45,010 nucleotides of DNA from a virus (lineage: Duplodnaviria; Heunggongvirae; Uroviricota; Caudoviricetes). This document shows, piece after piece, positions 3,001-6,000 of this stretch (the first letter of the stretch is position 1; the number at the start of each line of letters is the position of its first letter). The stretch lies in the IMG/VR virus record IMGVR_UViG_2917870735_000003, one strand, 5' to 3'. A program made the position numbers.

Positions 3001-6000
3001 CTGCAGTCTCGCTCGCCTTTGCGTTGGTTTCACTGGTTTTTGCAGCTTTTTGACTGTTGGCTGATGCAGTGGCAGAGGCCGCCGCCGCGCTTGCAGAACC
3101 AGCTGCAGCACTCTCGCTTTGGGCGGCTGCATCCTGACTGCTTTTTGCCGCAGTTTCGCTGGCTTTGGCATTCGTTTCGCTGGTCTTCGCTGCCGTCTGG
3201 CTGGACTTTGCGTTAGTTTCACTCGTCTTCGCAGCTTTCTGGCTGTTAGCTGCTGCAGTTGCTGATCCAGCAGCTGAAGTCGCAGAACCGGCAGCAGCAC
3301 TCTCGCTTTCGGCTGCTGCAGCCTGACTGCTTTTCGCCGCAGTTTCACTGGTTTTGGCATTCGTTTCGCTGGTTTTCGCTGCCGTCTGGCTGGACTTTGC
3401 GTTGGTTTCGCTCGTCTTTGCGGCTGTCTCGCTGTTTTTCGCGTTGGTTTCTGATTTTTTGGCTGCTGTCGCGGAGTTTGCCGATGCAGTCTGTGAGGTC
3501 GCTGCCGCCTGTGCGCTGTTAGCTGCATTCGTTTCTGAGGTTTTCGCCGCGTTCTTCGATGATGCCGCTGCAGTTTCGGATTTCTTTGCCGCCGCTGCGC
3601 TCTGAGAGGCGGCTTCGGCGTTGCGTGCCGCTTCTTCCACCATTTCCTCAAAACGACGCAATGCCTCCGGCATGACATCATCTTCCGTCATGGCACCGAG
3701 AAAATCATTCAGCGTACCTGGTCTGGAACCTTCATAGACGGTAATGGTCCCGGCATGTGAAGGCGGAAAACCTTCAACCAGCAGGGTGACGCTGTACTGG
3801 CCATCCTCAACATCCATGCTGTAACGCCCGGCTTCATCCGGATTTTCAGAGGCCACCGTGTTCACCAGTACCGTGGTGCTGTTACGCTTTGCCTTCAGTT
3901 GAATAGTGCAGTTCTGTATTGGTTTTCCCGCACCATCTTTCAGCACACCTGAAATCTGTACTGCCATACTCACTCCACAAATAAAAAAGGCGCCATTTCT
4001 GGCGCCCGTATTGGGGTTATAAATATTTCAACGGATACTGATACCGGAAGCAGCTTTTTTGGTCACAATCACTGTACAGTCTGTGATGTTACCTGCGCCC
4101 TGATTGCCTTTCTGGAAAATCTTAAACTCCAGAGTGACGCTACCACCACCACTCGGCATATCAATAACCGCACTGTAACTACCGGGAATGGCTCCTTTAG
4201 TTTCTCTGGTTGCGATTAATACGCCGTTTTTGCGAACTTCAAAACCATAACCCGTGTATCGCGTACCACCCGGGTTATTACCGCTCCCCGGATCGTCATA
4301 CGCCACACCATTAAAAATAATGGGCGGAATAATGATTTGGCGGTCAAAGTTATGATCATCGTAAATGGTGACTGTAACCGTCCCGCCTGGTGTTTCCGTA
4401 TCGCCCCACGAGCCAGTTTTTTTCGGGAATGGCTTAGATACAGCTTTAACGAAGTCACCTCTGACCTGAGTAGCCTCGAGCATTCCCTTAATCGTACAGT
4501 TCTCATTTATCGTGACGTTGTTGAGCGTCCCGGAGTTCGCATTCACGTTACCGCTGATATCGGCATTTTTCGCCGTCAGCCGCCCGTCCGGTGTCAGGGA
4601 AAATACCGGCGGATTGCCACCGCTGGTAATGGTGGGAGCCGTCAGATACTTCAGGAACACTTCGTTCATGAATATCTGGTTGCCCTGCGCCACAAACATC
4701 GGAGTTTCATTCCCGTTTGCCGGGTCAATAAACGCGATACGGTTAGCGGCAACCAGGAACTGGCTCAGTTTACCTTCCGGCGTGTCCTCCATACTGAGGC
4801 CAAGCCCCGCGACATAATGCCTGCCGTCTTTGGTCTGCTCAATTTTGACGCCCCACATGGCATTCCATTTATCGTTGGCGTCTTTCCACTCTTTCGAAAA
4901 CTCCTCCAGTTTGCTGGCGTTATCCTCCGTCAGCTCGACTTTTTCCAGCAGCTCCTTGCCGAGATGGGATTCGGTTATCTGGCCTTTGAAAAAATCCAGG
5001 TAACCTTCCGCATCATCGCTCGCCCGACCGACAGCCTCCACGAATGCCGATTTGCCAACAGTATTCACACTGCGGATATAAAAATAATAATCATGGCCCG
5101 GCTTAATATTGATACTGGCAGCTATCCAGTACAGCGCCGTGCCAAGATAGCGGGCTGTAGTTTCAACCTGCCTGATATCCGCAATCCGCTTTTCCGAGAA
5201 CCAGAACTCAAACTGTACCGTCGGATCATAAACGGCAAGATGGGGCGTGGCGGTTATCTGAAAATAGCCCGGCGTCAGCTCAATCCGCGACGGCGCTGCC
5301 GGTGCGGCAATCCGGAACGATACCGACGCCGGATCGCCCTGCTGTCCCCACGCATTTACCGCCCGGACTGTCAGCCTGTAGTTTCCCAGCGCCAGTTGCC
5401 TGAAGCGGTATGTGGTTTCCGTCGTCCGGGCCGTGCTGACCAGCCGTTCACTGCCATCATCCGCAGCCACAGTCAGGCGAAGCAGGAAGCTCACGCCCTT
5501 CACCACCTTCGGCGTGTCCCAGCGCGCCAGCACCTGATGTTCCCCGCTGTCTGCGGTGACTTCTGCAGTCAGGTGCTGCACCGCTGGCGGCGTGACACCA
5601 TTCACCGTGCCGCTCTGGTCGCCGTCAAAGTGCGCCCCGTTATCCACGATGGCTTCTTTCTCCGGTACATGCTGCACGGCGGTGATGGCATACGTGCCGT
5701 CATCGTTCTCACGGATACTCACACAGCGGAACAGGCGCTGGCGCAGCGTCGGCAACTTCAGCCCCCACACGCTGTATTCAGCAACGCCGTCAGGAACACG
5801 GCTCACTTTCACCTTCACACCGTCGGTGACGGACTGGACCTCCACGCTGACCGGATTCCCCTGTCCGTCAACCAGGCTTATCAGCGTGGTGCCGGAGGAT
5901 GGCAGCGTGATTTCACGGTCGAGCGTCAGTGTCCGCGTCTGGCTGTTCACCGCCAGCACGCGCCCGCCGATGCTGATCCCCGCATAGTCATCATCACAGA

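Follow-up and report, generated by a model that had tools for sequence, protein, structure and literature searches.

The window analysed here is the whole 45,010-nucleotide stretch of IMG/VR record IMGVR_UViG_2917870735_000003 and is a lambdoid prophage. Its positions 1028-10441 are identical (9414/9414 bases) to the NCBI contig PDHW01000003.1 of assembly GCA_004745215.1. The J-proximal tail genes of the prophage are intact as called on the identical contig, and large ORFs run through the remaining late region. Lysis genes and a Q antiterminator are also present, and at the right end stands an integrase-like ORF that the window edge cuts. The features discussed below are listed in Table 1.

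The central tail fibre gene J is complete. Its product matches phrog_31 ('central tail fiber J', E = 0) and contains six Pfam families (FNIII-A_GpJ, Phage-tail_3, Ig_J, Ig_J_second, Phage_Tail_Tip and Ig_GpJ_C), all of which exceed their curated cut-offs and are ordered as in lambda. An identical J protein is found in the NCBI assemblies GCA_004745215.1 and GCA_004212255.1. According to the gene calls of the identical contig, the tail-tip cluster ends with J, after genes encoding TMP_2, Phage_min_tail, Phage_tail_L, NLPC_P60 and Lambda_tail_I, and the PHROG matches agree in placing J after the homologues of the tape measure, M, L, K and I genes. Both the domain architecture and the cluster position are those of a lambda-family J. 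Residues 1-986 constitute the signal-transducing part of the protein. Given the 97% identity of this part to lambda J, the J trimer would be expected to close the tail tip and to open it on receptor binding. Two mechanically called ORFs that overlap the end of the gene, 4216-4506 on the minus strand and 4337-6097 on the plus strand, were treated as by-products of the long J frame and rejected as genes for want of any support.

Table 1. Features of the window discussed in the text (positions are those of the whole stretch).
Feature	Position	Strand	Description
J gene (central tail fibre / tip attachment protein)	4028-7441	minus	Complete 3414-nt ORF, 1137 aa
J body, aa 1-986	4484-7441	minus	Hub domains, FNIII domains, alpha-helical shaft, beta-prism fibre
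Divergent J end, 434-type receptor-binding end	4028-4483	minus	J codons 987-1137 and stop codon
Transition zone, codons ~968-1000	4442-4540	minus	Decay of identity to lambda
Ig-like receptor-binding domain, aa 1001-1136	4034-4441	minus	Pfam PF12421 Ig_GpJ_C, E = 3.6e-24
Hypervariable segment, aa 1004-1019	4385-4432	minus	5 of the 11 differences from 434 J; mostly loops or short strands in the model
Terminator-like hairpin	3980-4007	minus	Just past the J stop; 8-bp stem, 6 GC pairs, then TTTTTATTTG (pattern scan)
Side-tail-fibre-like gene	1589-3973	minus	794 aa, directly downstream of J; Pfam phage_tail_N, E = 6e-67
93-aa ORF	1311-1592	minus	phrog_1361
229-aa ORF	612-1301	minus	Peptidase_S74 intramolecular-chaperone domain
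Cold-shock-protein gene	26116-26331		Between the Q antiterminator and the holin gene
DndB / DGQHR-domain protein	38229-39293	plus	354 aa, Pfam PF14072, E = 4e-46; early-left region
233-aa ORF	41686-42387	minus	Invasin_D4 domain, E = 1.6e-8; near the integrase end

The terminator-like hairpin has a counterpart in phage 434, where a terminator is annotated at the same place after J. The side-tail-fibre-like protein matches phrog_1419 over its full length and has a lambda-Stf-like N-terminus. If J uses OmpC as its receptor, as argued below, this side tail fibre presumably recognises something else. No lom gene is present between J and the side-tail-fibre-like gene (3974-4027), and tblastn with lambda Lom returned nothing in the window. 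The 93-aa ORF is followed by the 229-aa ORF, which matches only the last ~240 positions of the 1385-residue fibre family phrog_3299 and has a 343-aa counterpart in phage HannyBb. The 229-aa ORF could encode a second, short fibre or be a remnant.

Three further observations concern regions remote from J. The region 25442-26700, which separates the Q antiterminator from the holin gene, contains a cold-shock-protein gene; at this place a porin gene of NmpC/Lc-like type, annotated as ompC or as porin, is found in related E. coli prophages (positions 1016-2098 in the relative L010). A tblastn search for an Lc/NmpC-like porin with a conceivable bearing on the use or exclusion of OmpC found none in the window. 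The DndB-like gene stands just after a gene that is annotated as lambda exonuclease family in the same relative, has annotated counterparts in related E. coli prophages, and could be a prophage-borne defence or DNA-modification-associated gene. Finally, the ORF with the Invasin_D4 domain may be a cargo (moron) gene.

The window J was aligned with lambda J (NC_001416; NP_040600.1), 434 J (OL657226; UMO75286.1) and HannyBb J (PP925841). The first-pass annotation had described about 985 lambda-like residues followed by about 150 divergent ones, and this description is borne out, the boundary being exact within ~15 codons. Identity to lambda J per 50-column block is 94-100% up to column 950, 76% in columns 951-1000 and 28-42% thereafter. 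Over the body 31 of 986 residues differ, whereas 102 columns are differing or gapped over residues 987-1137 (Fisher p = 4e-76 for the contrast between body and end). The last 151 residues are 38% identical to lambda J with five indels, and tblastn with the lambda J end against the window gave 35% identity. Lambda is also absent from the blastn matches of the 456-nt segment at 'distant' sensitivity among 50,697 phage records. The C-terminus thus lies far outside normal lambda J variation. The close identity to lambda over residues ~987-1132, which include the LamB-entering loops L1-L4, that characterises a LamB-binding end was not found in the window J.

The change is equally visible in the DNA. 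Over the J body, identity to lambda is 85-99% per 100 nt. It decreases from codon ~971 onwards and drops sharply at codon ~991 (window ~4471), beyond which it is 23-70% per 30-nt bin. Across the transition zone the profile in 30-nt bins runs 0.87, 0.77, 0.73 and 0.50 against lambda and stays at 0.83-0.90 against 434, and the zone is likely to be the recombination junction of a module swap. The base composition argues for a module swap as well, because GC content falls from 57.4% in the rest of J to 47.8% in the divergent end whereas the end of lambda J is at 55.6%; an equal drop is seen in phage 434. On the sequence, J reads as a mosaic of a lambda-like body (residues 1 to ~985) and an h434-type C-terminal receptor-binding domain. 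Such mosaics have been described before. The tree of J residues 960-1132 strongly disagrees with that of the whole protein, which was ascribed to frequent recombination (Maddamsetti et al., PMC6646904), and Gifsy-1 shows the same pattern, with ~964 conserved residues followed by a divergent end (PMC12312913).

The origin of the end is apparent from the comparison with phage 434. The two J proteins both have 1137 residues and are colinear, with 92-100% identity per block throughout. They differ at 22 of 986 residues in the body, and the last 151 residues are 93% identical without indels. The same residues are 94% identical to those of HannyBb J. The window, 434 and HannyBb proteins have identical gap positions against lambda and share insertions near lambda residues 1010 and 1043 and a deletion near 1105-1110. 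At the DNA level, the 456-nt segment is 90.4% identical to 434. Searched by blastn against the 50,697 phage records, it matched 74 records, all at 89-95% identity, including 434, 434B, lambda h434 imm21 (~90%), mEp460, cdtI and many long-tailed Stx1a and Stx2c phages. Of 5426 complete E. coli genomes, 2105 (about 39%) contain DNA of the 434-type segment, at 2839 places in all. A homologue search with the 151-residue end retrieved for the most part incomplete proteins (85-97% identity) of E. coli, E. albertii and Shigella and a few distant types, a set suited to a shallow alignment rather than to a survey. The 434-type end ranks among the commonest J ends.

The classical hybrid lambda h434 imm21 allows the host range to be placed on this sequence. 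In its record, the switch from lambda to 434 occurs between positions 17619 and 17637, which corresponds to J codon ~705-711, and the record stays 434-like from there through lom, stf and beyond, so that 434 lom, stf and tfa travel along. This crossover maps the h434 host range to J residues from ~706 on and to the downstream genes. Between residues 706 and ~985, 434 J is 76-100% identical to lambda J per 50-column block, and identity drops to 28-42% only in the C-terminal end. The segment of the window is of 434 type by its gap-free identity, by its indel pattern and by the presence of the module in the classical hybrid. The divergent end is the long-known h434 host-range allele, and the swap is an ordinary, already known and very common one.

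Such an assignment would matter little if J sat in a defective prophage and were out of use, which would make the receptor question moot. Lambdoid prophages are often cryptic, but we consider this very improbable for the window. J is intact and equal in length to 434 J, and the neighbouring H, M, L, K, I and stf genes are all called intact. Large ORFs continue through the tail, upstream late-gene and lysis regions, and the Q antiterminator and the integrase-like ORF are present. Moreover, the comparison with 434 J gives 144 synonymous against 33 non-synonymous codon differences, which is consistent with purifying selection.

According to the literature, the receptor of phage 434 is OmpC, and a lambda phage with the tail-fibre gene of 434 likewise binds OmpC and not LamB (PMC3509688, PMC11101478, PMC12502783). 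From its homology with 434 J, the window phage probably uses OmpC, rather than LamB, as its receptor. A different outer-membrane receptor is the best reading of the divergent end because this end is 93% identical to that of 434 J, whose host range is OmpC. The receptor change proposed in the first-pass annotation therefore stands, by homology; what had been missed is that the end is the h434 allele. Because lom, stf and tfa of 434 are part of the h434 hybrid as well, the classical genetics alone do not isolate the last 150 residues. In independent engineering work, when the natural J ends A8 and 1A2 (Brodel et al. 2024) were grafted at lambda residue 964, the particle switched from LamB to OmpC (PMC11338833), and this narrows the mapping of the h434 host range further.

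The contrary reading, that the C-terminus represents ordinary lambda-type variation and still binds LamB, can appeal to the fold and Pfam family, which are common to the window J and lambda J, and to the conserved short motifs DDHxFDRQI, IDMPxGxG and KKxxxGIS. Against it stand the low identity to lambda, the five indels and the lack of a lambda match at 'distant' blastn sensitivity, together with the 93% identity to the end of 434 J, a protein that confers OmpC binding on lambda. To judge by the alignment, LamB binding is already contradicted, and we regard it as extremely improbable.

The end of J falls in the Pfam family described as 'Tip attachment protein J, C-terminal receptor binding domain' (PF12421). 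A phmmer search of the PDB with the last 218 residues retrieved A8 gpJ (9wca, E = 4e-66) and lambda gpJ (8xcj and 8iyk, E ~1e-57). Residues 918-1137 were modelled as a monomer with AlphaFold2 from a shallow alignment of 11 sequences. The mean pLDDT of the model is 72.9; ten-residue blocks score 70-96 over most of the Ig-like domain and lower at both ends. The only strong Foldseek matches of the model were 9wca, 8xck, 8xcj and 9wcb, with E values from 2e-15 to 2e-18, the best being to A8 gpJ (E = 2e-18). These entries correspond to A8 gpJ in the closed state (9wca) and in the open state with OmpC of E. coli EDL933 (9wcb), and to lambda gpJ in the closed state (8xck) and in the open state with LamB (8xcj). 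Since solved binders of LamB and of OmpC both match one fold, the fold family is common to the two kinds of binder. Going by the model, specificity presumably resides largely in the loops.

The A8 and 1A2 ends were also considered as possible members of the 434 type and were rejected. The A8 end is 43% identical to the window end over the last ~145 residues; the fold is common to both, so the two ends would act in a similar manner but are of different types. The 1A2 end is ~33-35% identical, a value obtained with a machine-read (OCR) sequence that contains errors. The supplement of Brodel et al. 2024, which covers the 1A2 and A8 ends, contains no 434-type DNA strings.

Within the 434 type, the window end is a distinct sub-allele. 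It differs from 434 J at residues 1004, 1009, 1011, 1014, 1019, 1027, 1046, 1078, 1108, 1110 and 1115 (11/151). Five of these 11 differences, and five of the 9 differences from HannyBb J, fall within residues 1004-1019, a clustering with p ~0.002 for a stretch that was chosen after the fact. Codons 1001-1020 (4382-4441, 60 nt) also have the lowest DNA identity to 434 and HannyBb, 73-80% as compared with 90-100% around them. This pattern suggests local diversification of one receptor-facing loop. In the alignment D1014 of the window falls opposite lambda S1012, and residues 1108-1115 fall close to lambda D1107, although gap placement there is approximate. S1012 and D1107 are the two positions needed for the gain of OmpF by lambda (Maddamsetti et al., PMC6646904).

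The loop allele is rare. Its exact coding string was found only in Escherichia sp. E1V33, an unclassified Escherichia, among 185,579 species-representative genomes scanned, and this strain carries a near-identical J-end allele. In the 5426 complete E. coli genomes the best identity to the window allele is 98.2%. Given the allele in E1V33, the host of the window prophage may not be a typical E. coli. It is conceivable, if unlikely, that this sub-allele with its distinctive loop is adapted to a diverged OmpC, or to a different porin, of a non-coli (cryptic-clade) Escherichia. If true, J would offer a case from nature of porin tracking at the level of alleles.

The same substitutions weigh against a simple OmpC assignment. 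The end could be of 434 type by descent with its sub-allele specificity shifted, either to another porin (OmpF, or a phage- or host-specific one), to several receptors, or to a narrow set of OmpC proteins, such as the OmpC alleles of the cryptic-clade Escherichia that carry a near-identical allele. The concentration of substitutions and of low DNA identity in one loop favours this possibility, as does the rarity of the loop string. In lambda and phage 21, one to four changes in J are enough for the gain of OmpF or OmpC as additional receptors (PMC6646904, PMC11336670). OmpC-binding J ends are moreover allele-specific, the A8 and 1A2 ends discriminating between OmpC variants (PMC11338833). However, 93% identity without indels is well within one type of receptor-binding domain. 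The A8, 1A2 and phi330 ends, at 33-43% identity and with a different loop architecture, all bind OmpC (PMC11338833, PMC12502783), and receptor gains obtained in the laboratory initially keep the original receptor (PMC11336670). We consider a shifted specificity rather improbable, and OmpC itself is retained as the preferred receptor.

In the solved lambda structures, each receptor-binding domain inserts four loops from its lower end into the LamB trimer, and the three domains spread at the bottom. After docking, the beta-prism fibre is twisted by newly formed hydrogen bonds and the helical shaft flips; finally the FNIII arms detach and the hub opens (PMC11101478). A cascade of the lambda type can be proposed for the window J because everything above its receptor-binding domain is 97% identical to lambda. 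By analogy, the trigger of this cascade would be docking on the OmpC trimer. Three Ig-like domains would make up the far end of the central tail fibre, which would dock on a trimeric porin of the outer membrane. This porin is most probably OmpC rather than LamB, and the loops at the bottom of the domains would engage its extracellular loops and its lumen. Docking would spread the three domains apart, and the beta-prism fibre and helical shaft above them would twist and refold. The FNIII arms would then be released and the tail tip would open so that the DNA can be ejected, as in the structures of lambda with LamB.

For the annotation of the prophage, these results point to an h434-type, probably OmpC-dependent lambdoid phage and not to a LamB phage. 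The OmpC assignment predicts the host range, the resistance mutations available to the host and an independence from maltose regulation. A conserved J body with an exchangeable tip of ~150 residues is textbook lambdoid mosaicism, and it has an engineering use in lambda particles retargeted to OmpC.

Compared with known systems, the window J has the same domain architecture and receptor-binding-domain fold as LamB-binding lambda J (PDB 8xck / 8xcj), but the last ~150 residues differ. The A8 and 1A2 gpJ proteins likewise have lambda-family ends that exchange LamB for OmpC recognition, but their receptor-binding domains are of types distinct from that of the window. The closest deposited phages are HannyBb, Tritos (the LF82 prophage), PhiR11_1 and PhiR63_1. 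Their whole J regions have 95-96% DNA identity to the window, the 456 nt of the divergent end being 95.0% identical, and HannyBb J differs at 9 of the last 151 residues. Receptor data for these four phages were not found in the literature, and the Tritos/Perceval paper makes no mention of a receptor. As in the window, J of HannyBb stands directly before stf without lom, unlike in lambda and 434, which do have lom. Among phages of known receptor, 434 corresponds to the window in J length and colinearity, in the Ig_GpJ_C domain, in the indel pattern and in the placement of J after the K and I genes. It differs by 33 substitutions in J, 11 of them in the receptor-binding end, and by the lom gene that follows J in 434, whereas the window J adjoins a different side tail fibre of 794 residues.
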